Positions 3,514-30,525 of a DNA stretch of 49,456 bases are shown in pieces. Each line of letters starts with the position of its first letter. Within the stretch, counting starts at the first letter, position 1. Below the pieces are notes generated by a model. It was not told where the DNA came from, ran no database searches, and saw nothing but the letters and a program-made list of their open reading frames with translations. Position numbers and translations under genes: made by a program. The stretch is from positions 1 through 49,456 of the forward strand of contig PAZT01000029.1 of NCBI GenBank assembly GCA_002716165.1, given 5' to 3'. The DNA is from Deltaproteobacteria bacterium. Lineage in GTDB: Bacteria > SAR324 > NAC60-12.

Positions 3514-6500
3514 ATGCAAATGAAATTTTTACTCAAATTAATTCTGTTTTTTTGTTTTTTAGCATTTGGTCCCTCTTCTGTAGTTGCTCAAGCACTTGAA
3601 ACCACTGATTCAAGATATCCTGAACGCAAGTACAGGAGATTTCTTCTTCCTAATAAAATGAAAGTTATGCTGATTTCAGATAAAACTTTGCAACGTGGGG
3701 CAGCTTCGATGACAGTCTCGGTGGGCTCAATGAGCGATCCTGATAACCGTTATGGTATGGCACATTTTTTAGAACACATGCTTTTTTTGGGAACAGAGAA
3801 ATACCCTGATGAGGGTAGCTACCAGAAGTTTGTCTCGATACATGATGGATTTAGCAATGCCTACACCGCAGATGACCGTACAAACTATCATTTTGAGATT
3901 GCATCAGATTATTTAGATGAAGGTCTGGACAGATTTTCCCAATTCTTCATAGGGCCGTTGTTTAATCAGGGACTGATTGAAAGAGAGCTTAAAGCTGTGA
4001 ATTCAGAACACTCCAAAAATATTCCTAACGATTACCGCAGAATAAGTCAGGTTAAACGTAAGGCTTTTGTGGAAAATCACCCTGCCAGAAATTTTGCTAC
4101 AGGTTCACTCGATACACTAGCAGAAGTTACAAGGAAAGAATTACTTACCTTTTATAATAATCATTATTCAAGCAACCGCATGATGCTTGCCGTTGCTGGG
4201 CCTCAAGATCTAGATATTCTTCAGAAATTAGTAGTCCCAAGATTTGCTTTAGTAAAAAACCTCAACTTAAATCAAATTAAGTTTTCATCTAAATATATGA
4301 ATTCAACTAATCTTTTTCGTCTAATGCAAGTCAAGACTATAAAGGACTCAAGATCCCTGACATTGATGTTTGCATTACCAAAAACACTTCATTATTACAA
4401 AAGTCAGCCACTGGGCATGCTCGGTTTTTTGCTTGGACATGAAGGCAAAGGGAGCTTGCTTTCTCTTCTAAAAAGAAAAAATTTTGCAACAGGACTTTCT
4501 GCAGGTGGTGGAGAGTCAAATAATTCATTTTCCAGTTTTGAAGTAAGAATTCAACTCACGCCAAAAGGTCTCAGCAATTATAAAAAAATTATCGAAAATG
4601 TTTTCCAATATCTTAGTCTACTTCGTAAAACAGGATTACCCCCTTATGTTTATGAAGAGGTAAAAAGAATGTCGAAGCTCGATTATAGGTTTTCTGAAAA
4701 ACCTGAAGGTACCTCTTTGGTCAATGTATTTTCAACATTGATGATGTACTATCCTTTTAGAACATTAGAAATTGATCCATACATTATTACAGATTTTAAA
4801 CCAAGGATATTTGACAATATTCTTTACAGTTTAAGTCCTAATAACATGCTCGCTATATTAGCTGCGCGTGACTTAAAAACAAGTATGAAGGAAGAGTTTT
4901 ATGGAGTTGAATATGACCTGACTTATACTAATCCTAAATTATTTAAGAAATGGCGAAATGCTAAAACTAATAATTTTCTTAAACTCCCAGAACCAAACAT
5001 TTTCCTGCCAGAGGTTCTTGATATTCTTCCTTACAAAGGTAGGATAAAGTTGACTCATCAAACTATGAAAGGACTCGAGCAGGAAGGTATAAGTAAAAAA
5101 TTGCTAAAAAAATTAGAATCGTCAAATGGAAAATTTTGGAGTTCTCTGGATGAATTGTTTAGTTATGTTGAAGCTTCTTCTGGAACAGAAAATTTAAACG
5201 ATCAACGTGAATTATTACGAAAACATGTAATTGGAGACCCTGAGGTTTTAAAGGATGATATGTATGGAAAAATCTGGTTCCAGCAGGATTTTCGTTTCGA
5301 AACTCCAAAAGCGTATCTGAAATTTAGAATAAACACACCTAAAGTATATTCTTCTCCTCGAAAAGCAGTATTATCCCAGCTTTATGTTGATGCCATTAGT
5401 GAAGGACTTAATGAATTTGGATATCCAGTTAGGCTGGCTGGATTGGAATATGGTATTAATGTGGACAAAAAAGGTATAATTCTTACTTTTAGTGGATATT
5501 CAGACAGAATACTTGAACTGATAAAAAAAGTTTCAGGTCTTTTAAAGGAAATAACTGTTGATAAAAAAACATTCAATACTCTCAGGGAGGTTCGAGGACG
5601 TCGTTATCAAAATTTTCATTTTAAGCAACCATTTCAGCAGGCATTTTATTATAGAAGCCTGTTACTCGAAGAGAGAAAATTCTCCATCATGGATTATGAA
5701 AAAGTGATTAAGAAAATAAGTTTGAATGATTTGAAAAAATTTGCAAAAAAAATTTATGATCAAATTTATATTGAGGGTCTTGCCTATGGTAATCTAAGCA
5801 GGGCTTCTGTAATAGAAGCCACTAGAGTTTTAAGAGAAAAACTTTCGGGCAAATCTTTGTCAAAAAAAGAGTTTTTTCACGAAAGTGTTTTACAGCTTCA
5901 AGTTGGTAAATCTCATTCTTTCACACGCAAAATGCATGTTGAAAACTCTGCGTTGGTTATGGAAAATCAGGTTGGACAAATAAGTCCTAAACTTCAAGGG
6001 GTATTACTTTTGATAGACAATCTGTTGCAACCTCAATTTTATAATGAACTCAGAACAGGACAACAACTGGGATACATTGTTAATTCAGGCATAACATTAT
6101 TGGATACAACTTTGGGTTTAATATTTATTGTTCAATCTGGTGAGTACAATACAGAAATTCTTGAAAAAAGGATCGATACTTTCCTTTTGAAATTTTTTAA
6201 TTCATTAAAGGAACTTTCAGATACAGAATTTTCCAAAATTAAAAAATCAGTTTTGCATAGCAAATTGTTGAAAAGAAATTCTATTTCTGGTGAGGCTGAA
6301 AGACTGTTTTCTATAGCCTTCGAACGAAACGCTGAATTTGATTTAAATAGTGAAAATATTAAAGCAATAGAACAACTTAAGATTGAGGATATTATTCAAG
6401 TTGTTGACACTTATTTTTTGCCTTCAAAACAACGTAGACTTATTTTAAGAATGAGTGGAAAAAATCATCACGAAGGTCAATCTGGAGGTGAACCTATAGC

Positions 6501-12421: not shown

Positions 12422-15400
12422 ATGGTTGTTAAAAATAAAAAAAATAGAAGACAAACATCTGCCTTTCATGCTGCTGAAGTAATGTCGCACGATCTATCCT
12501 TGCTTAGAGGTAAGAAATTTTCTAATTATTTTGATGATTCAGAGGTACAAGGGCTATTACCATCTCATGATGTAGAAAAAGAGGTACAGCAATTAAAGAG
12601 AATTGATGTTGATTCATATATTCAAAGAGTTGTAAATCCCTCTGAATCAAAAAATAGACCTAGTGCACCAGAAATAATAAAGCAGTTAGGGAGTAAAATA
12701 ATTTCTGAGGAAACAGATGGACCTTTATATACAGCCGAAATTGAAATTATTATTTCAGATCAAACCCGCAGGCTGGGATTTATTGCCCAGAACCACAAAA
12801 TACAAAACGGTGTGTGGTATCCAGTCCATCATCGTAAAGCTGCAGAGCAAATACGGTTTTTTGCATCTCATAGTATTCCTTTGGTTACATTCATGGACAC
12901 ACCTGGAGCAGCTGCAGATGCAGAAGCAAATTTAGAAAATCAATCTCATAGTATTTCATTTTTGATTAGCGAGATGGCAAACTTGCAGCTCCCTGTTATC
13001 GGAATTGTCTTCGGAGGTGGTTTTAGTGGTGGTGCAATTCCTCTAGCTACAGCAAATATACTTCTTTCTGTCAGGGAGGGAGTATTTAACACAATTCATC
13101 CAAAAGGATTAAGCAATATTGCTCGTAAATATGATCTTTCATGGCAGGAGTCTGCAAAACATATAGGAGTTTCCGCATATGAACTCCAACATCAAGGATA
13201 TTTTGATGGAATTATAGACTACTCATATGATCAGCCTCAAAAAGTAAAAAATATTAGAGATGCTATTGTAGGTTCTGTTGAAGCTACAGAAAAAAACTCT
13301 TGCAAATTTTTGCATGAAAATGATTTCTTTTTCGATCATTATCGAGACAGTATCTATCACTATCTAAATCCGTCAAATCTATTAATTGAAAGTAACCGTG
13401 TGACAGATCGTTCACCTACAGGGACATTGAATATTTTTGGTGATGTTTACCGTTTCATGCGGTACCTGAAATTACGTCAGCGAATCGTAAGCCGTTCTAT
13501 TGATAGCTACTCGCGACTTAGTGCTCGTAAAACTCCAGTTGGGAAGTTACAGGAACGTTTAAAAACAGAAAGACAGGAAAAGTTTAAACAATGGTATAAG
13601 TCTCCATTGGAGGTTCGCTATCAGGAAAAACTTAATAAGCGGTATGAGCAATTTATAAGCTCAAGGGAGGATAGGGAAAAAGAACGAGGTAAATTTGTTG
13701 CTTTTTTTATTGGAGATCCCCGAGAGAATTATCAGAAATCCATAGATGATCTGACATTAGAAATTTTATTACATCTATATAATTATTGGATGGATAGTAC
13801 TTCGGAAAACCTTAAAGAATTAAATAAACAGCTTAGCAAATCAACTCTCCATGATCATCCACCTCATAATCCTGATTTGTTAGACTTACTGAGAACTACT
13901 GAAATATACCAAAGTTTTCAGATTAATTACCAAAATATACTTCTTTTCGATTTGCTTTACAATCAGGTAATTGAAGCGCTTCCAACTATAGCCAATGAGC
14001 TGAAAGGAACAAATCAAATTTCACAAAAATCTGTAGAACATCTTTTTGAAAAAACTGTTGAAGGTGCAATAAAAGAATTTGAAAAGAACTCTGTACAACA
14101 TGAAAGCAAAAACGTGAAATCACAGTTTTTCAAATGGCTCGCAAGTTTTATAGAGCGCAAGGACTGTGATGTTGTTTTGGGTACCATTAGCGAATGGAAA
14201 AAGGTCGTTTTTCCCAGAATGAGTCCACCACTTTTTGGGGTAGTAAGATATTATTTTTCCGGATTGCTCCCATCATTGTACGCAGCGCAACAGAAGAAGG
14301 GTCGTTTTCAGGGGAAAATAACACCACGCAACATAGGTATAAAAGATTTTTGGAACCGCTTGGATCAATCATATAAAGATCTTTTGATCCAGAATCTTTT
14401 GAGGGAATACAAACGCAACGTTATTACTCCTAAAAAAATTATAGATCATTTTTTCAAAGATTTTAAAGAGCTATATTCTGATAGGATAACTTCAAATCCT
14501 GTCAAGTTCCCAGGCTTCAGGGGGGCTATTGAAGATGCCTTACAAAATGGGGTTGTACCATGTGGAGTGATAACTGGATTGGGTACTTTTGCTGGGGAAG
14601 ATAATTCGGATTCTTCTAAAAATAAAGCTCCAAAATCAAAAAAAGTAAAAAGAGACTACCGAGTAGGACTAGTTATAAGTAACGTAGAGTTTCAAGCTGG
14701 TTCTTTCGATATGGCTAGCTGTGAAAAAGTTTGCAGACTGCTTGATGACTGTGCACGATTGAAATTGCCTGTTATATTTTTTATTTCTTCAGCAGGAATG
14801 CAAACCAAAGAAGGAGGGGGATCATTATTTTCCATGGCAGTTATAAATGAGCGCATTACGCGCTTTGTTAAAGATTTAGATCTTCCAGTAGTATGTTTTG
14901 GATTTCGTGACTGTACTGGAGGTGCTCAAGCAAGTTTTGTAACTCATCTGCTTGCCAAAACTTACTATTTTTCTGGTGCGCAAATACCCTTTGCTGGTCA
15001 GCTTGTAGTAGAAAGTCATCTGCCTGCGCATTCTACATTATCAAATTATTTGTCTAATAATCCAGGAACAATGGATGCACTAGTGAAAAATCCTTTTGAT
15101 AAGGGGATTGATAAAAAGCTGCATGAAATTGATCCTCAAATACCTGTTGCTCAATTTTCAGTAGAGGAGGTAATTTCTCGAGTTTTGTCCGGAGAGTACC
15201 AGATATCTGTTGAAGAAGAAGTTAAAGCATATTCTACGCAGGAAAATTTACATATAGGGGATATTAAACGTATTTTGATTCATGCTCGAGGATGTACTGC
15301 CACTAGGTTGATTCAAGGTTCACAAGTCGCTGGAATGGAAGTTGTGCTCGTGGCCTCTGATCCAGATATGGAAAGTTATCCAGCTACTTTACTCAATGAA

Positions 15401-17005
15401 AAAGATAACTTAGTATGCATTGGGGGTGAAACTCCACAAGACAGCTATTTAAATGGAATGAGCGTCATCAGAATTGCAGAGCAAGAGGAAGTCGACGCAA
15501 TTCATCCTGGAATTGGTTTTTTATCTGAGTCTCCTCATTATGCACGAATATGTCGTGAACATGGTTTTAATTTTGTAGGACCGCGTGCTGTAAATATGGA
15601 TAGAATGGGAAATAAGTCAAATGCTATCGCGACAGCAAAAAATTTAAACATACCTGTTGTTCCAGGCAGTGATGGGGCTTTGATGGATCCATCACATGCG
15701 ATGATAGTAGCTTCAGAAATTGGGTTCCCAGTTTTAATTAAAGCTGCACATGGAGGAGGGGGGAAAGGTATTGAGGTAGTTAAAGATCCAGACAAATTTC
15801 AATCTACTTTCACTCGAATGTCTCAGGAGGCTTTAAGTGCATTTGGTAACGGCGATTTGTATCTGGAAAAATACATTGGCTCAATGCGCCACTTGGAGGT
15901 TCAGATTATAAGGGATATGCATGGTAATTCAAAATTGTTTGGCATTCGTGATTGTTCAATTCAGCGGAACTATCAAAAACTTATTGAAGAAACAGCATCT
16001 GGAATTCCGAATAAAATTAGGGAGCAGGTATACCGTTTTTCAGAAAAATTAATTGCGGAAATTGATTACATTGGTGCAGGAACAGTAGAGTTTATTTATG
16101 ATTTGATAGAGAAGAAAGTATATTTTATGGAAATGAATACACGTCTTCAAGTTGAACATCCTGTCTCTGAGATGGTATCTGGAGTGGATTTGGTAAGTCA
16201 ACAATTTGAGGTTGCACAAGGTAGAAATATAAAAAATTTGGATTTTAAACTAAATGGACATGCTATAGAATTAAGAGTGATTGCTGAGAAAGTTGATCTA
16301 AATGATAATGGTGAATTATTATTTGTTCCAGATCCCGGTCATGTAACAGAAGTTTACTTTCCAGAAAAATCAAATGTGAGGGTTATTCAAACGATTTCTT
16401 CTGGATCAGTGGTATCCCCATTTTATGACAGCCTTGTTGCTCAAATAGTATGTTGGGGTAGATCACGAAGTGATGCCATCAATCGTTTAGTTGATTATTT
16501 AAAACGGGTTAGAATCCATGGAGTTTCAACAAACCTTGCTCTTAATCGTGCAATTTTGAAGGATGATATTTTTAAGAAGGGAAGTTTCAGTACTGGATTC
16601 CTTGCTGATTTCTTTAAGCGAATCAACTCTAAGAAACTCTTAAGTGAATCTCTTAGGGATTCCGGATCTTTAAATAAATCTGTAGATACTGAATCCATCA
16701 AACTTGAAGGATCAGATGAGCTAAAAGTACTTTCTCCTCAAATGGGAGGCTTCTATCGTGCTCCATCACAAGATGATGAACCGTTTGTAAGTGAAGGACA
16801 GGTCATTGATGTAAACGAAACACTTTGCCTAATTGAATCTATGAAAGTATTTACGGAATTAAAACTTGCAGACTATAAAAGTTCTGACGGCAATACTCTG
16901 TTTTCAGATGATGTAAAATATAAAGTCAAAAAAGTTATTGCAGAGGACAAAAACACTGTCAATCAAGGTGATTTGCTATTTGTTATGTTGCCTATTGTTG
17001 TCTAA
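12422..17005 (+). CDS. single-chain multidomain biotin-dependent acyl-CoA carboxylase (AccA-like, unknown insert, AccD-like, biotin carboxylase, BCCP)
   Basis: AccA-like: FMDTPGAAADAEAN...GGGFSGGA. AccD-like: GVITGLGTF...FISSAGMQTKEGGGSLFSMA...CTGGAQASF. ATP-grasp biotin carboxylase: GFPVLIKAAHGGGGKGI and EMNTRLQVEHPVSE. Biotinyl domain: CLIESMKVFTEL, with the Lys codon at 16844-16846. Confidence 0.9.
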   Translation: MVVKNKKNRRQTSAFHAAEVMSHDLSLLRGKKFSNYFDDSEVQGLLPSHDVEKEVQQLKRIDVDSYIQRVVNPSESKNRPSAPEIIKQLGSKIISEETDGPLYTAEIEIIISDQTRRLGFIAQNHKIQNGVWYPVHHRKAAEQIRFFASHSIPLVTFMDTPGAAADAEANLENQSHSISFLISEMANLQLPVIGIVFGGGFSGGAIPLATANILLSVREGVFNTIHPKGLSNIARKYDLSWQESAKHIGVSAYELQHQGYFDGIIDYSYDQPQKVKNIRDAIVGSVEATEKNSCKFLHENDFFFDHYRDSIYHYLNPSNLLIESNRVTDRSPTGTLNIFGDVYRFMRYLKLRQRIVSRSIDSYSRLSARKTPVGKLQERLKTERQEKFKQWYKSPLEVRYQEKLNKRYEQFISSREDREKERGKFVAFFIGDPRENYQKSIDDLTLEILLHLYNYWMDSTSENLKELNKQLSKSTLHDHPPHNPDLLDLLRTTEIYQSFQINYQNILLFDLLYNQVIEALPTIANELKGTNQISQKSVEHLFEKTVEGAIKEFEKNSVQHESKNVKSQFFKWLASFIERKDCDVVLGTISEWKKVVFPRMSPPLFGVVRYYFSGLLPSLYAAQQKKGRFQGKITPRNIGIKDFWNRLDQSYKDLLIQNLLREYKRNVITPKKIIDHFFKDFKELYSDRITSNPVKFPGFRGAIEDALQNGVVPCGVITGLGTFAGEDNSDSSKNKAPKSKKVKRDYRVGLVISNVEFQAGSFDMASCEKVCRLLDDCARLKLPVIFFISSAGMQTKEGGGSLFSMAVINERITRFVKDLDLPVVCFGFRDCTGGAQASFVTHLLAKTYYFSGAQIPFAGQLVVESHLPAHSTLSNYLSNNPGTMDALVKNPFDKGIDKKLHEIDPQIPVAQFSVEEVISRVLSGEYQISVEEEVKAYSTQENLHIGDIKRILIHARGCTATRLIQGSQVAGMEVVLVASDPDMESYPATLLNEKDNLVCIGGETPQDSYLNGMSVIRIAEQEEVDAIHPGIGFLSESPHYARICREHGFNFVGPRAVNMDRMGNKSNAIATAKNLNIPVVPGSDGALMDPSHAMIVASEIGFPVLIKAAHGGGGKGIEVVKDPDKFQSTFTRMSQEALSAFGNGDLYLEKYIGSMRHLEVQIIRDMHGNSKLFGIRDCSIQRNYQKLIEETASGIPNKIREQVYRFSEKLIAEIDYIGAGTVEFIYDLIEKKVYFMEMNTRLQVEHPVSEMVSGVDLVSQQFEVAQGRNIKNLDFKLNGHAIELRVIAEKVDLNDNGELLFVPDPGHVTEVYFPEKSNVRVIQTISSGSVVSPFYDSLVAQIVCWGRSRSDAINRLVDYLKRVRIHGVSTNLALNRAILKDDIFKKGSFSTGFLADFFKRINSKKLLSESLRDSGSLNKSVDTESIKLEGSDELKVLSPQMGGFYRAPSQDDEPFVSEGQVIDVNETLCLIESMKVFTELKLADYKSSDGNTLFSDDVKYKVKKVIAEDKNTVNQGDLLFVMLPIVV

Positions 17006-18511: not shown

Positions 18512-19354
18512 TTAGTTTACTACTTCTGTCAAAGATCTTAAAAATTCTATACGGTTGCGAGCTTTCATGGCAGCATTACCAATTAAAGCCGCGTCACAAG
18601 GAATATTCAAAATGCATTTAACATCTTCAGGAGAGTTAATACAACTGGCGCTGATCAAAAGTTTCCCTGGCTGTTTCTTCCATGATCTTAACTCAGAATA
18701 GCGTTCCCACCATTCTAAAATTACATTAATGCTACCTTTTTCGTAATTCTCATTAGGTTCTTCTGGAATTGATGCGATAGGTCTGTTATTTATCATCAAA
18801 ATATCTGGGTTAACACCAAGTACTTTTGGAAGTTCATTCTCAACAGAACATTCAACTACGGCATTAAGGCCAATATCTTCAGCTTCTGTTACAATTTTTG
18901 ATAATTCTGTTTGATTAAAATAATATGCTAAAATTAAAGCTGCACTTGCTCCACGTAACCGGCCTTCCAATAGTTGATAAGAATTAATTATGAACTCTTT
19001 ATGCAATAAGGGCAATTTTGTAACTTTTGAAACATTTTCAAGATTACTCAGGGAACCACCAAACCATGTTTGATCGGTTAAAACAGAAATTGCTTTTGCA
19101 CCTCCGTGTTCAAATTCTTTGATTAGAGTTTCAATTTCAAGTTTATTTACATTTATGCGTCCTGGTGCTCTGGCCTTTACTTCCACTATGAGTGAAATTG
19201 GCTCTCCTTGATTGCGGATTAGTCTTTTGCGAAAATCGGGAGCTTTTTCAAGATTATTAACTTCAGAGAGCAAATGATCTTTTTTTATTGTTTTTTGGCG
19301 ATTTAAAACCTCTTCTTGTTTTAATTCACGAAGTTTATCTAAAAAAGTTCTCAC
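18512..19354 (-). CDS. trpC: indole-3-glycerol-phosphate synthase-like (divergent TrpC)
   Basis: VEVKARAP (E.K), GAKAISVLTD..WFGGS, LLHKEFIINSYQL..GR..GA.A.LL, VECS and INNR motifs. Has an extra segment after INNR, and ASCI where ESGI is usual. Confidence 0.72.
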   Translation of the reverse strand: MRTFLDKLRELKQEEVLNRQKTIKKDHLLSEVNNLEKAPDFRKRLIRNQGEPISLIVEVKARAPGRINVNKLEIETLIKEFEHGGAKAISVLTDQTWFGGSLSNLENVSKVTKLPLLHKEFIINSYQLLEGRLRGASAALILAYYFNQTELSKIVTEAEDIGLNAVVECSVENELPKVLGVNPDILMINNRPIASIPEEPNENYEKGSINVILEWWERYSELRSWKKQPGKLLISASCINSPEDVKCILNIPCDAALIGNAAMKARNRIEFLRSLTEVVN

Positions 19355-19468
19355 AGGAATTCAATCAAATTAATCTTTTTAAAGTATCTTTTTCAGTGAG
19401 TGAGAAAAAAAATCACTCTTTTTAAACAACCAGCATGCCTTTGAACAACTTCCGATTCAAGCAAAATT

Positions 19469-19496
19469 TTGTCAATTCTTAAATTATTGTTATAAT
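19469..19496 (+). promoter_or_regulatory. near-consensus sigma70-type promoter (TTGTCA, 16 nt spacer, TATAAT) pointing at the two mini-genes
   Basis: Hexamers read directly at 19469-19474 and 19491-19496. Would give a leader of about 170 nt before the ATG at 19674. Confidence 0.35.
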
Positions 19497-19673
19497 TTTT
19501 GATCTAAATATTTAAAATGGTTTAAACAGTCTTTAACAAGCATTTTTTCAATTTATTAAAAAACAAAAAATTATTTGTGGTCTGTAACTTGCAGCATTAC
19601 TAATTAATGTCATTACAATACAAAAAATAATTTATTAATTAATTATAAAAATCAATTATTTAGGAGAACAATA

Positions 19674-19847
19674 ATGAGTGTTTCACGTGATCAAGTAAAT
19701 GATGCAATGGTTCGTTTTTTAGAACGTGGCGGTTCAATTCGACGCTACGAAAGAGTTGTAGGTGAGCCAATTTTAGGCAGTGATATATGGCTTACAGAAG
19801 ATACCATGGAGCTGATAGAAACTAATGACTCTGATTTCTGGGGCTAA
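19674..19847 (+). CDS. small acidic protein, 57 aa, paralogue A (unassigned family)
   Basis: Own translation: MSVSRDQVNDAMVRFLERGGSIRRYERVVGEPILGSDIWLTEDTMELIETNDSDFWG. AGGAG at 19662-19666, 7 nt before the ATG. Paralogous to the next ORF, with mainly synonymous differences in the conserved blocks. Confidence 0.65.
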   Translation: MSVSRDQVNDAMVRFLERGGSIRRYERVVGEPILGSDIWLTEDTMELIETNDSDFWG

Positions 19848-19942
19848 TTAATTTATACAAAACTTGCTATAAACTAAATCTGACAAATCAATAATCTTAT
19901 AGTTTAAAGTATTTCTTCAAAAGAGAAGAATCAGGAGTAAAA

Positions 19943-20101
19943 ATGGGTGTTTCCAGTGAAAAAATCAATGATGCAATGGCACGATTTATAATGAGCAGAT
20001 ACCAGCGTACAGTCCATGTACCTGATATGAGAAGTGGATTAGTATTCTCCCAGAATACCATGGAGCTTATTGAAACGCATGATTCTGATTTTCTGGGATA
20101 A
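19943..20101 (+). CDS. small acidic protein, 52 aa, paralogue B (unassigned family)
   Basis: Own translation: MGVSSEKINDAMARFIMSRYQRTVHVPDMRSGLVFSQNTMELIETHDSDFLG. AGGAG at 19933-19937, 5 nt before the ATG. Shares the VS...(V/I)NDAM.RF and TMELIET.DSDF.G blocks with paralogue A. Confidence 0.65.
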   Translation: MGVSSEKINDAMARFIMSRYQRTVHVPDMRSGLVFSQNTMELIETHDSDFLG

Positions 20102-20325
20102 GATTTCTTAAAAAGACCTTATTCTAAAATTCCATTACAATTTGTTTGGTTTGTAGTTGAAGTATGTAAATGATAAAACATTTTCCACTGTGAATTCATT
20201 ATATACTTACTATTAGCCAGAATCTTTAAAGCAGATGAAAATGTGTTTTTTCTTAGAATCATGACTTAATTTAAGAAATATAACTCGGCAAAGTTATCAC
20301 AAATTTTTTAGCCCTAAAAAATCTG

Positions 20326-22554
20326 TTAGACACTTCTCTGGGACTGTTCAAATAATTTCCAGCAAATAATAGGAATTTCTTTTAGTATGTCAGTATTATT
20401 GATGCTATAAACTTTTGCTTTTGTAAATGCTTGAGCGTTTTTTTTTCTAATTTTGCTCTTAATTATTTTTTCTCCTCCCCAAAAGTCTCCTTTTGAAATA
20501 AGATGCTTTTTTGAAGAGGTGTTACTTTGCATACCATTAAGCTCAATTTTACCTTCCTTAACTAACATTAGTCCATCATAAACTATTTTCTCACCTTTTG
20601 AGTAATTTTTGAGTGTCATATTTTGTGCAATTTGACTCTGAACCGGTGATGAAATTGATTCCCCAAATAACCAAGTTTGTTGAAGAAACTCGGTGATTTC
20701 ATGGGTTTTTTTAAGTTGTTCCATCAATTTGTTTCGATGTACAAACTCTTTGAACAAAATTTCTGGAATTCTTAATGTTTCAATGTGACTTAATGCACGG
20801 TATATCCCAGTACTTTTAAGGCCAAACAGAACTGCAAGGTCTCCTATAAGAGTTCCGCTTGATAACTGATAACTCGTTTTTTCTTCTGAAGAAAGGAATT
20901 CTGCAACACCGGTCAGCACTAGAAAGGCATGATCTGGGATTTCCTTATCCTTTAACAAAATTGTTCCGGGACTGACTAGCTCACGTTTGCAATTAAGCAG
21001 CATATGTATTTCACCTTCTTCAACGTTCGGATAATATCCCTTGAGGTAAGAACCTCCAAATTCAAGAGAATAATCTTCATGACCTTCAATTAAAACATCA
21101 GTGCTACCAAAAGTTACCCCACATCCAATTAACTGTTCTTCCTTTGATAGCTTATGGGCGGTGTGAGCTAATATGATTTTTTCTGATTTGTCATCCTTGA
21201 AATCATTAGCTTTGCCGTGAATAATTCCTCCCCCGATATCAATTTTCTTTACTTGGACCGGAAGTAGGTAATCTTTCCAGACCTTATTCTTTAATTTTTT
21301 GCTTATTCCTGGTTTTTTCTTATTTTCCTCGAGCATCTTATTAAGTACATCATGAGATGCTACATCCGCTAAATGTGCGTAAGTCGCATACCCGGTTTCC
21401 CAAAGTGTCCTGAAGAAGAGGATATTTGTTTCAACGGGATGAGGTGAATATACTGGCTTTACTTCAAGTCCATCAATATTGTTCCATTCATCAAACTCAA
21501 GGTCGCAAACATCGAAATATTCTGCAAATGTACTTTCCTCAATTGACATAAGTGAAGATAATTTTTTTGTCACTGAGGCACGCACCATTTGAGTGGAATA
21601 GTATTTAATTTTATGGTTTGTGTGGATAAGTGTGGTAAGTCCAGCAAAATGATCATCATGGGAGTGTGTATGAAAAATTCCTTCTACTTCATTTACATCA
21701 ACGCCAATGGCATTGAGTGTATGCGCAATGTTAGGGCCAACATCAATTAGAAAGATTTTCCCTTGAAAGCAAATAACACTTGCCATACAGGGACGATCAA
21801 TATCCCAGCCGTCCCCCTCTCCGGTATGGACCACTGAAAAATAATCACGCTTGAAATAATGATTTTCAAGTTGGTAGGGAGTCTCATAAGTTTCATTTTT
21901 AGCTAGATTCAGATCTATTTCAACAACCTCATCTTTATAAATAAATTCGTAACAGTTTATCCCCTTTCTTACTACTTTAACTCCGTTAATTACTTCTACA
22001 GGTTCATGATCAACAATTACTGAATGCAACAAATCGCTACTAGGTTTTATTTCTCCAAATGCAAAGAATAGCTTTATTCTCATCATCTCTTTTGCTTGCT
22101 CTCTAGGTAAGCCCGAGGCCATAATTTCTTCTAGACTCGTCAAACCATAATTGCCGCTATAAATGTAATTCATCTGAGCATTTACAACGTTTTCTTGTCC
22201 TATTAGTAGAGGTTTTACACCAGTATTATTTGGGTGATTTGGTAGGATCATACCTTGTCGGTAAAGCATCTGTAGTACTGGGAATTCTGCTAAATTTGCA
22301 AAGTCTCCTTTTTGAACACTAAGGTCTGAAAGAAGGATGGCATTAGGTCCCGTTTCATTAGTAATTTTGCCATGGGAATGGTGTTTTTGGTCTGATTCAG
22401 AATTGTTTTCTAATTCATAATCACGAATCTTACCTGCTTTCATCAAGTGTTTGACGCTGTCTGCTGGGCATCCACATAGTACAAACAATTCTGCTTCTGG
22501 AATCTCCAACCAGAAAACGCCAGTAGATATTTTCGTCTTAGAAATTTTTGACAT
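20326..22554 (-). CDS. metallo-beta-lactamase-fold hydrolase fused to C-terminal cyclic-nucleotide-binding domains (possible cNMP-regulated phosphodiesterase)
   Basis: 742 aa. HxHxDH motif FHTHSHDDHFAGL near codon 297. C-terminal third shows cNMP-binding beta-barrel features (GTLIGDLAVLFGLKSTGIYRAL...; GDFWGGEKII). N-terminal ~250 aa unassigned. Confidence 0.78.
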   Translation of the reverse strand: MSKISKTKISTGVFWLEIPEAELFVLCGCPADSVKHLMKAGKIRDYELENNSESDQKHHSHGKITNETGPNAILLSDLSVQKGDFANLAEFPVLQMLYRQGMILPNHPNNTGVKPLLIGQENVVNAQMNYIYSGNYGLTSLEEIMASGLPREQAKEMMRIKLFFAFGEIKPSSDLLHSVIVDHEPVEVINGVKVVRKGINCYEFIYKDEVVEIDLNLAKNETYETPYQLENHYFKRDYFSVVHTGEGDGWDIDRPCMASVICFQGKIFLIDVGPNIAHTLNAIGVDVNEVEGIFHTHSHDDHFAGLTTLIHTNHKIKYYSTQMVRASVTKKLSSLMSIEESTFAEYFDVCDLEFDEWNNIDGLEVKPVYSPHPVETNILFFRTLWETGYATYAHLADVASHDVLNKMLEENKKKPGISKKLKNKVWKDYLLPVQVKKIDIGGGIIHGKANDFKDDKSEKIILAHTAHKLSKEEQLIGCGVTFGSTDVLIEGHEDYSLEFGGSYLKGYYPNVEEGEIHMLLNCKRELVSPGTILLKDKEIPDHAFLVLTGVAEFLSSEEKTSYQLSSGTLIGDLAVLFGLKSTGIYRALSHIETLRIPEILFKEFVHRNKLMEQLKKTHEITEFLQQTWLFGESISSPVQSQIAQNMTLKNYSKGEKIVYDGLMLVKEGKIELNGMQSNTSSKKHLISKGDFWGGEKIIKSKIRKKNAQAFTKAKVYSINNTDILKEIPIICWKLFEQSQRSV

Positions 22555-28925: not shown

Positions 28926-30230
28926 TTAAATAATTTGATTTCCTTTTTTAAGCTCCTGATAATGATTCAAAACTTTCTGGCGTGATCTCTGTGCGAGAGC
29001 TATTGCTTCTTTACGTAGATAATCATCATCTGGTTTCCAGTTTCGTGTGCGCAAACGATAAGGTCTCAACCCTAAATCGATGTCTTCATTTTTACAAAAT
29101 AATTCATCTATTTGAGGCCTTTTCACCCATGTATCCTTCAAGTTAATTTCTAGAGCGTAATACCAACTTGCAAAATTTTGTAATCGCTGATCTTCAAAAT
29201 ACCCAGCAGGTTTGAGAGATTCAACAAATTTTCTAAGTGCAGGATTTTGTTGAAATCTGTCATAATCTACTACATATAGGCTTTCTGAAAGAAACAGTGG
29301 AGCCCCATGTAGAAGAAGTCCCTTGGATTTAAGTGTGTTTCCTGTTTGCACAATTTCTAGACCAACACTACCCTTTTCAGCATTCATCAGAGTTTCTTCA
29401 ACATCGTCTACTGACTCGATGCGGAGCTGTGGGTATGCGGCCATCACGATACCACTGTAGCGACCTTTAACAAAAACATGGCGTCCGTGTTTTGATAGCG
29501 TTTCAAAATCAATTGGACTGCGTCGGCTTCCTCCTTTTTTTGAAATAAGAAAAAATCCAACCATATCCTGTACTTCCCCTCCAAAAACTTTGTTATAACT
29601 ACTTAGCATCGCTGAACCTGCAACACGAATACTAGTTGGTTTTTCCAACTGGTAGTTATACATGCCCCATTTAGTTACTTGGGTGGGATCACCCAAATAA
29701 TGCTGTGTCATGGAAAGAAGTTCATCCAGTCCAACAACCGTTAGATCAACTTCATCAAGCTTAATTAGAGATGATCCATTATGTGGTTCCTCACCCTCAA
29801 CACGTATTCGAGTTTTGCCAATTTGCCAGTCATAACCGAGGAAGCCTACTCGGTAAGGACGAAGTTTTCGTTTTCGATCCACAGAAATTGAAAAACATGA
29901 CGGCGCAGATTTTGAAATTTCTTGAAGAAAACCGAGAGCTTGCGAAAGGTCCGTAGTGCTTCTTCGCTTGCTTTCAGCCAGCACATTTAAAATTTTATCA
30001 ATTTCATCTCCATTGATCCCCATACTTTTCAAATTGTTAAGGAAATTATTCAACGTGCGACCCGTACGGGGGACTGCACATGTAAGGTCAAATGATGGTT
30101 TGAAATTTAATTTAGACAAAACTAAAATTTTTCGTAATTTTTCATACTTACTCTGTAGCAAATCAGAATTGCATCTTAGTGTAAATACCGAAGATAGCCT
30201 AAGTAATTGTAAAAAAGATTCTCGTATCAT
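28926..30230 (-). CDS. expanded HisG-like (ATP phosphoribosyltransferase fold) protein, function uncertain
   Basis: AVPRTGRTLNNFLNNLKSMGI resembles the HisG N-terminus (A.P.KGRL......L...GI). DLTVVGLDELL resembles D.GI.G.D.L.E. GLEIVQTGNTLKSKGL resembles the PRPP-loop IVD.V.TGNTL..NGL. Extra N-terminal, internal and ~100-aa C-terminal segments. Alternative TTG start at 30242. Confidence 0.5.
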   Translation of the reverse strand: MIRESFLQLLRLSSVFTLRCNSDLLQSKYEKLRKILVLSKLNFKPSFDLTCAVPRTGRTLNNFLNNLKSMGINGDEIDKILNVLAESKRRSTTDLSQALGFLQEISKSAPSCFSISVDRKRKLRPYRVGFLGYDWQIGKTRIRVEGEEPHNGSSLIKLDEVDLTVVGLDELLSMTQHYLGDPTQVTKWGMYNYQLEKPTSIRVAGSAMLSSYNKVFGGEVQDMVGFFLISKKGGSRRSPIDFETLSKHGRHVFVKGRYSGIVMAAYPQLRIESVDDVEETLMNAEKGSVGLEIVQTGNTLKSKGLLLHGAPLFLSESLYVVDYDRFQQNPALRKFVESLKPAGYFEDQRLQNFASWYYALEINLKDTWVKRPQIDELFCKNEDIDLGLRPYRLRTRNWKPDDDYLRKEAIALAQRSRQKVLNHYQELKKGNQII

Positions 30231-30525
30231 TGCTGAAAACAAACAAGATTTTTGTAATAATATTACCTGAAATAGTTAGAGAAAACCTGAAATAAATATA
30301 ATCTCAAACTGCAGAATATGACTGTAAGTTATCCCTCCCTTTTTGTAGGGTTCTATGTTGTCAGAGTAGGATTTTACTCTTGTTGATTTAATCTATAAAA
30401 TCTAAATTTCACATGTTTTAAAAGAAGTCGATTGTCTCAAGATTGAACCTTTTATTGCTGAATTGAGTATAAACTCCAAAAAATGAAATATGTTTAGTTC
30501 ATAAGCTTAAATAAAAGCCTGAATT

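Follow-up and report, generated by a model that had tools for sequence, protein, structure and literature searches.

Genes A and B are a tandem pair of very small genes on the forward strand of a 49,456-nucleotide contig of a SAR324 bacterium (PAZT01000029.1, assembly GCA_002716165.1; this whole stretch is called the window below). Gene A (19674..19847, +) encodes 57 residues, and gene B (19943..20101, +) encodes 52; B is paralogous to A but shorter by five residues (ERGGS). The N-terminal part of A resembles the RNA polymerase (RNAP)-binding domain (RBD) of SutA, a 105-residue protein of Pseudomonas aeruginosa that contacts the β protrusion of RNAP. Comparative sequence analysis suggests, with a probability of roughly 0.6, that A and B are small proteins, expressed under σ54 control, whose target is the β protrusion of RNAP. 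Homology between A and the SutA domain is the firmest part of this proposal and is very probable; that A itself binds RNAP is favoured less strongly. A sequence-only reading of the window had been unable to place the pair in any known family; for residues 1–32 of A, a remote but specific match to SutA now provides such a placement.

The SutA-RBD-like segment of A (residues 1–32; 19674..19769, +) comprises a helix (residues 5–17), a Gly19–Gly20 turn, a putative strand (residues 21–25) and the motif VVGEP. SutA is represented by the families PF20661 (Pfam, SutA-RBD) and NF041490 (NCBIfam, SutA equivalog) and by the PDB entries 7f0r, 7xl3 and 7xl4. PF20661 is the only family matched by A of the window (15.9 bits), and it also matches 10 of 14 close A-type members at E ≤ 1, the best of them with E 5.8e-6. 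Family members reach 26.0 bits (P0021) and, among the divergent ones, 27.6, 28.3 and 30.7 bits, the last of which (P0149) is the only score above the gathering cut-off of 29.3 bits. In NCBIfam, PADLOC and PHROGs, no family other than the SutA type was matched by A. When an A-type profile was compared with 177,635 PDB sequences, the best match was the SutA chain 7f0r_G (E 0.49), with RDALAKAMEEFLSRGGKVQEIE.NVVADP aligned to RDQINEAMTRFLERGGSIRRYERVVGEP. Pairwise comparison by BLASTP gives 41% identity between A and SutA over 34 residues. Comparison of the A family with the C-terminal halves of Pseudomonas SutA by hhalign gives a probability of 93.1% and E 3.2e-7, for a SutA alignment of low diversity (a search with a SutA fragment yielded just seven short Pseudomonas-type sequences).

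The specificity of this likeness was assessed with a hidden Markov model (HMM) built exclusively from Pseudomonas SutA sequences. It was run against 5,080 six-frame open reading frame (ORF) segments from the window and 26 related loci, and the A-type ORF of every source occupied the top 27 places (6.5–18.3 bits); the next segment scored 4.8 bits. Among 4,000 composition-matched shuffled A-family sequences, the maximum was 8.2 bits.

The aligned segment also coincides with a functionally defined interface. Ten substitutions in SutA impair binding to the β protrusion, namely those at K60, R64, L67, M71, F74, L75, G78, G79, V81 and I84 (PMC9300723). In the PDB-profile alignment, where the numbering of the SutA chain is offset by four, their counterparts in A are M1, R5, V8, M12, F15, L16, G19, G20, I22 and Y25; eight of the ten are identical or hydrophobic-conservative, in exact register. 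Across the A family, Gly19–Gly20 shows no variation, and positions 8 and 22 show almost none. Both proteins are small and mostly disordered, with a single confident helix. For SutA, nuclear magnetic resonance revealed one helix between flexible tails (10.1101/423384); for A, AlphaFold2 predicts a confident helix at residues 5–17 and little order elsewhere (mean predicted local distance difference test score, pLDDT, 66; block means of 82 and 86 within residues 1–20). A Foldseek search of the PDB with this model gave no match (best E 5.1), as is to be expected when the model has only 57 residues and is mostly disordered.

A σ54-type −24/−12 element lies upstream of A (TGGTCTGTAACTTGCA; 19578..19593, +; GG at 19579–19580, GC at 19591–19592). 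In the window it is located 80 nt 5′ of A, with a predicted transcription start at about 19603–19606. The sequence TGGTCTGTAACTTGCA agrees with the −24/−12 consensus TGGCACG-N4-TTGCW at 9 of 12 specified positions, and its GG/GC spacing is exact. In the alignment of upstream regions the only conserved block is cTGGTCTGyAtATTGCAg, and the window and all 22 species loci share an exact TGG-N8-TTGC. Its distance to the start codon is 78–83 nt in 20 of these, and 44–49 nt in the other two (L024, L025). The element carries 1.78 bits of information per position compared with 0.7–0.86 in the flanks, though synonymous sites are near saturation between species. In its minimal form the motif is not rare in the window (seven observed, 4.6 expected). 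Transcription of A from a σ54-dependent promoter is probable on these grounds. A σ70-like site at 19469–19496 (11 of 12 positions) was considered as the main promoter and rejected, as it is not conserved in other species. Further upstream, a candidate activator site at 19433–19460 consists of GCATGCC followed by the inverted repeat TTGAA-N10-TTCAA; it lies about 120–145 nt upstream of the −24/−12 element, the usual distance for sites of enhancer-binding proteins. It is kept in the window and its closest clade (L005, L007, L008), partially in L006 and L023, and is absent elsewhere.

The spacer between the genes (19848..19942, +; 95 nt) contains the Shine-Dalgarno sequence of B. It holds neither a terminator nor a −24/−12 element, and no intrinsic terminator follows A or B. 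Since nothing of the kind separates the two genes, B is probably co-transcribed with A. In 15 species the spacer measures 75–98 nt, and its conservation is limited to the Shine-Dalgarno region.

The predicted 5′ untranslated region of A (19604..19673, +) includes a conserved block, TCAATTATTTAGGAG, and the Shine-Dalgarno sequence AGGAG (19662–19666). A conserved block aTaTtTCAAttActTAGGAG at 19650–19666, found at the same position in 13 loci, takes in this Shine-Dalgarno sequence; in the leader block TCAA..TA..GGAG, TCAA and TA are invariant over 13 species, and the remaining leader has diverged. No consensus secondary structure was found for the 5′ untranslated region of A. In an Rfam search over 19300–20400, a match to P14 was rejected as sub-threshold (20 bits, with a threshold of 45). 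Several species among L009–L021, outside the clade of the window, have inverted repeats in the leader some 20–55 nt 3′ of the −24/−12 element (CCATTAA...TTAATGG; CACCTCATTTAT...ATAAATG.AGGTG). Their sequences differ between clades, and the repeat may represent a lineage-specific hairpin.

A and B are genuine protein-coding paralogues under purifying selection. Their coordinates and translations are as given in the sequence-only reading, which had also noted an AGGAG Shine-Dalgarno sequence 5–7 nt before each start codon (7 nt for A; 5 nt for B, at 19933–19937) and the lack of Cys in both products; all of this is borne out. Full-length alignment of A and B gives 27 identities in 57 positions (47%) with one five-residue gap (BLASTP, E 5e-18), as expected from the tandem paralogy that had been proposed. 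The selection signature reported for the C-terminal block is likewise seen: the last 14 codons differ by six synonymous changes and two replacements (N/H, W/L). By the Nei-Gojobori method, this block has 6.5 synonymous and 2.5 non-synonymous differences, with a proportion of synonymous differences of 0.76; that is, synonymous sites are saturated, and the likeness of A and B is therefore held at the protein level, not by recent gene conversion. The comparison of non-synonymous and synonymous rates that had been recommended gave pairwise ω values, in unsaturated comparisons, of 0.03–0.17 for A and 0.07–0.5 for B, well below 1 for both genes. A is better kept than its housekeeping neighbours; in an L001-type genome, its identity is 81%, compared with 65% for IGPS and 73% for the metallo-β-lactamase (MBL) gene. 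The ORF boundaries of both genes are preserved across the species-level genomes compared. In one (L001) of four otherwise near-identical contigs (L001–L004), B was skipped by gene callers.

The family is found in 22 species (one genome per GTDB species), all of them SAR324 or metagenome-assembled genomes with deltaproteobacterial or loosely assigned labels; the single-cell genome AG-404-P05 matches the window over A at 100% identity. At each locus, A-type and B-type genes were called by a profile scan of all six-frame ORFs. A tandem of an A-type and a B-type gene, 75–98 nt apart, occurs at 18 of the 22 species loci, or in 19 species including that of the window. The suggestion that recurrence of the tandem be examined has thus been answered positively: about 19 SAR324 species share both the pair and its chromosomal location. 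At one species locus the contig stops before B, and the three most divergent genomes (L024–L026) each have a single A-type gene, from which it follows that B arose by duplication within the lineage. Word-indexed searches of metagenome clusters (90% identity) returned about 99 A-like and 45 B-like clusters; wherever a source is named it is a SAR324 cluster bacterium, and the annotation is “hypothetical protein”. When 1.84 billion representatives were searched exhaustively with a profile, just 26 clusters were retrieved, so the family is narrow. No relatives were found in IMG/VR viral contigs, and PADLOC and PHROGs gave no matches for the family; hence, it is neither defence-associated nor phage-borne, and a role as toxin–antitoxin components is likewise contradicted by the data. 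Some SAR324 members carry an automatic PF20661 label in a protein collection. A literature search found nothing linking SutA to SAR324, the one paper containing both words being unrelated; the SutA-like similarity is latent in databases, not yet described.

A and SutA have in common the succession of helix, Gly–Gly, short strand and VVxxP (SutA 60–92, A 1–32), the mutagenesis-defined contacts with in-register counterparts, and a long acidic, basic-free tail that adjoins the binding segment. The arrangement around this core differs. A starts at the equivalent of SutA K60 and has neither the 55-residue D/E-rich N-tail (23 acidic residues) nor the wedge loop (residues 54–57). In SutA both of these are needed for activation, and SutA without the N-tail inhibits transcription in vitro in a dose-dependent manner (PMC9300723, 10.1101/423384). 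After VV(A/G)(D/E)P the sequences diverge, the C-tail of SutA being basic (PPKKPDSKYGSRPI) and that of A acidic (GEPILGSDIWLTEDTMELIETNDSDFWG). The acidic module of A thus follows the binding segment, at the C-terminus, instead of preceding it, and its sequence is conserved in its own right. SutA has been reported only from Pseudomonadales, Alteromonadales and Oceanospirillales, with no homology to other characterised proteins (PMC9300723, 10.1101/423384), whereas the A family occurs in SAR324, where A is accompanied by a tandem paralogue that has no Gly–Gly. The promoters differ as well: in P. aeruginosa, sutA is transcribed from RpoD and RpoS/FliA promoters and shows no conservation of its putative RpoN sites (10.64898/2026.06.26.734693), while the −24/−12 element is the sole conserved block upstream of A. 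As far as sequence can tell, then, the docking segment is the same in A and SutA; architecture, lineage, paralogue and promoter are different. There are also natural short SutA homologues without most of the N-tail or the C-tail (10.1101/423384), and these resemble A in that one tail or the other can be missing from the central RNAP-binding segment. Compared by description, they differ from A in being gammaproteobacterial and in having no described conserved acidic C-terminal module or tandem pairs.

The family-specific acidic module of A (residues 30–57; 19761..19844, +; GEPILGSDIWLTEDTMELIETNDSDFWG) contains eight D/E and no K/R. It is kept in all A-type members and partly in B-type members, and a helix at residues 42–53 is predicted by AlphaFold2 with low confidence. 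Conservation between A and B is highest at the C-terminal tip I-E-T-x-D-S-D-F-L-G. A itself varies in its last two residues (WG, LG, CC or LS; P0003 and P0021 are among the members concerned), and at L008 (4447–4620) the Trp codon has become TGA, such that A ends in ...DSDF. The functional tip of A probably ends at Phe.

A mode of action can be proposed from these features. The amphipathic helix 5–17 of A, the Gly19–Gly20 turn and strand 21–25 would insert into the hydrophobic groove that SutA 60–90 occupies on the RNAP β protrusion (β1 domain). In the absence of an acidic N-tail and a wedge loop, A should be unable to open the β lobe in the manner of SutA. In the complex of SutA with RNAP, the stretch that follows the SutA helix crosses the protrusion toward σ region 3.1, and the N-terminus points into the gap between protrusion and lobe and the main cleft (PMC9300723). 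If the chain of A follows the path of this post-helix segment, its acidic module would sit at the σ region 3.1/upstream-fork side, not in the cleft. There it might modulate initiation, either through competition with (upstream) promoter DNA or through contacts to σ; this specific role is put forward tentatively. For a module acting at such a position, an inhibitor or selectivity factor is more likely for A than a SutA-type activator.

Acidic, DNA-mimicking modulators of RNAP include σ70 region 1.1, the C-terminal tail of the Firmicute δ subunit and phage T7 Gp2. The analogy with A 30–57 would consist of a flexible, strongly acidic segment joined to an RNAP-docking element. It is a functional likeness; no relation in sequence or fold between these proteins and A was detected.

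The picture is less straightforward for B. It lacks the ERGGS of A, Gly–Gly included, and its N-terminal helix is predicted to be continuous over residues 5–23 (from a reduced alignment). Retained are N-x-A-M-A-R-F-L, R-Y and the C-terminal I-x-T-H-D-S-D-F-L-G, whereas the counterpart of SutA L67 varies among B-type members. B may be envisaged as a later duplicate in which the Gly–Gly turn has been lost while the helix face and the C-terminal tip persist. Its binding surface may be that of A, approached in another geometry, or it may be a partner, competitor or antagonist of A.

A number of observations weigh against binding of A and B to the β protrusion under σ54 control. A of the window remains under the PF20661 gathering cut-off, and with 13.8 bits against NF041490 (cut-off 145) it falls outside the SutA equivalog. 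The match to SutA spans only some 28–34 residues, the E-value of 0.49 for the SutA chain in the PDB is weak, and a mixed A+B profile scored one GAPDH chain better (7jwk_A, E 0.023, 34 residues). The acidic N-tail, strictly required for activation by SutA, is absent from A; A may therefore function differently from SutA, or may no longer bind. For the B family, hhalign shows no direct similarity to SutA (0.8%) and PF20661 gives no match; Gly–Gly, whose substitution impairs SutA binding, is deleted in it, and the link from B to SutA runs through A alone. Lastly, the window contains no gene for an RNAP subunit, σ54 or an enhancer-binding protein, and the literature yielded nothing usable on rpoN in SAR324.

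Some of these points would fit with small acidic adaptors or regulators whose partner is not RNAP, such as a σ or anti-σ factor, a response regulator or a protease adaptor. The SutA-like helix–Gly–Gly would then be either a convergent short motif or the mark of a diverged homologue that has changed its partner. The shortness of the SutA match and the sub-threshold score of A in the window would be accounted for, as would the fact that the best-conserved A/B tip, I-E-T-x-D-S-D-F-L-G, is absent from SutA and is retained by B, which has no Gly–Gly. The tip resembles, we presume, acidic-aromatic C-terminal docking tips such as that of SSB. A possible partner is at hand in a stand-alone receiver-domain gene, which is a conserved neighbour at every locus with enough upstream sequence except L026. 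Nevertheless, the similarity to SutA is specific, with all 27 A ORFs ranking first of 5,080 segments and above the shuffled sequences; nine SutA-binding residues have counterparts in exact register, and Pfam, NCBIfam, PADLOC and PHROGs offer no other family. A partner other than RNAP is thus the less probable of the two, if still the most serious competitor. The general direction of the sequence-only reading, which had suggested small regulators or adaptors, is retained.

Its other suggestion, peptide precursors, is not upheld. Small size, tandem paralogy and a C-terminal Gly conserved in many members might indicate ribosomally made peptides or secreted signals. However, conservation extends over the full length with its maximum in the N-terminal helix, neither a leader/core split nor Cys nor a hypervariable core is present, and the final two residues vary or are replaced by a stop after Phe. 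None of the 22 conserved neighbourhoods contains a maturation, export or modification gene, and no conserved modifying enzyme, peptidase or exporter is found nearby. A precursor role is accordingly very unlikely. A further idea, that the pair are accessory subunits of the MoaD/ThiS-like and MBL–cNMP (cyclic nucleotide monophosphate) operon or of the adjacent response regulator, draws on synteny: IGPS lies upstream in all 19 tandem-pair loci, and the MBL–cNMP gene about 0.5–2 kb downstream in 14 of the 19, which is wherever the contig reaches. The convergent orientation precludes a shared transcript, though, and in many species unrelated genes intervene (PNP_UDP_1 and HigB/HigA downstream, EamA upstream). 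Moreover, the fetched flanks of L024 and L025 have no MBL match, L026 matched no neighbour of the window, and the region as a whole (acetyl-CoA carboxylase, polyprenyl synthase, IGPS, PheT) is one of housekeeping synteny, not a functional cluster. Such a partnership is improbable, and the association with the MoaD-like and MBL–cNMP genes that had been drawn from the window is not supported, given the intervening PNP_UDP_1 and HigBA genes, the convergent orientation and the lack of an MBL match in the fetched flanks of L024 and L025. Least credible is an origin as non-coding repeats or as remnants of a larger gene such as that for GAPDH. The match of the mixed A+B profile to 7jwk_A is its sole attraction; 7jwk_A is one of many PDB GAPDH sequences, only this single chain was matched, and no GAPDH-like sequence flanks the genes. 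Start, stop and Shine-Dalgarno sequences are kept in 22 species as those of stand-alone genes, and ω is well below 1; this conservation refutes such an origin. The GAPDH match was therefore judged to be due to chance.

Binding of A and B to the RNAP β protrusion would have several implications. SutA is the sole characterised protein known at this site of RNAP, and published accounts restrict it to a few orders of Gammaproteobacteria; a far smaller conserved relative in SAR324, an abundant, uncultured lineage of the dark ocean, would widen the range of this type of regulation. A would provide a minimal binding domain of natural origin in which the acidic effector is placed differently, and the σ54-type promoter suggests a signal-dependent layer of control. 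At the same time, a testable function would be available for a gene pair that annotation pipelines either call hypothetical or miss. A more far-reaching and rather doubtful extension is that the groove of the β protrusion in which SutA binds serves regulators as a docking site far beyond Gammaproteobacteria. SAR324 would then possess a permuted, minimal two-protein version, made only when a σ54 activator fires, in which the 57-residue A is the anchor with a C-terminal acidic effector and B, without Gly–Gly, tunes or antagonises A. If this were true, one σ-factor system would reprogram the RNAP pool used by others, in a very abundant deep-ocean lineage.

In the window, A and B are situated between IGPS (trpC, −, start at 19354) and a 742-residue MBL–cNMP gene (−, stop at 20326), with which they are convergent, as had been noted from the sequence. 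The syntenic order is fused acetyl-CoA carboxylase, polyprenyl synthase, receiver-domain gene (−), IGPS (−), A, B, MBL–cNMP gene (−), ThiS-like gene, diacylglycerol kinase and PheT. Both flanks of the pair are points of insertion in other SAR324 species (19355–19673 and 20102–20325 in the window; 4978–5817 and 6480–8058 in L001–L004). The inserted genes encode an EamA transporter upstream, and PNP_UDP_1 together with a HigB/HigA pair between B and the MBL gene. The fetched downstream flank of L024 and L025 yielded no MBL gene, and none of the neighbouring genes of the window was matched at L026.

The product of the 742-residue neighbour (20326–22554, −) combines a metallo-β-lactamase fold, which also matches Anti-Pycsar Apyc1, with a cNMP-binding domain, and is conserved across SAR324; by its domains it may be a hydrolase that is regulated by cyclic nucleotides or degrades them. 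It is preceded by an 81-residue ThiS/MoaD-like gene. An ORF of 438 residues at 28926–30242 (−) matches no Pfam family at E ≤ 1e-5. The gene at 12422–17005 (+) encodes a single chain of 1527 residues with Carboxyl_trans, ACCA and biotin carboxylase domains, that is, a fused acyl-CoA carboxylase, with 75–99% identity across SAR324 loci.

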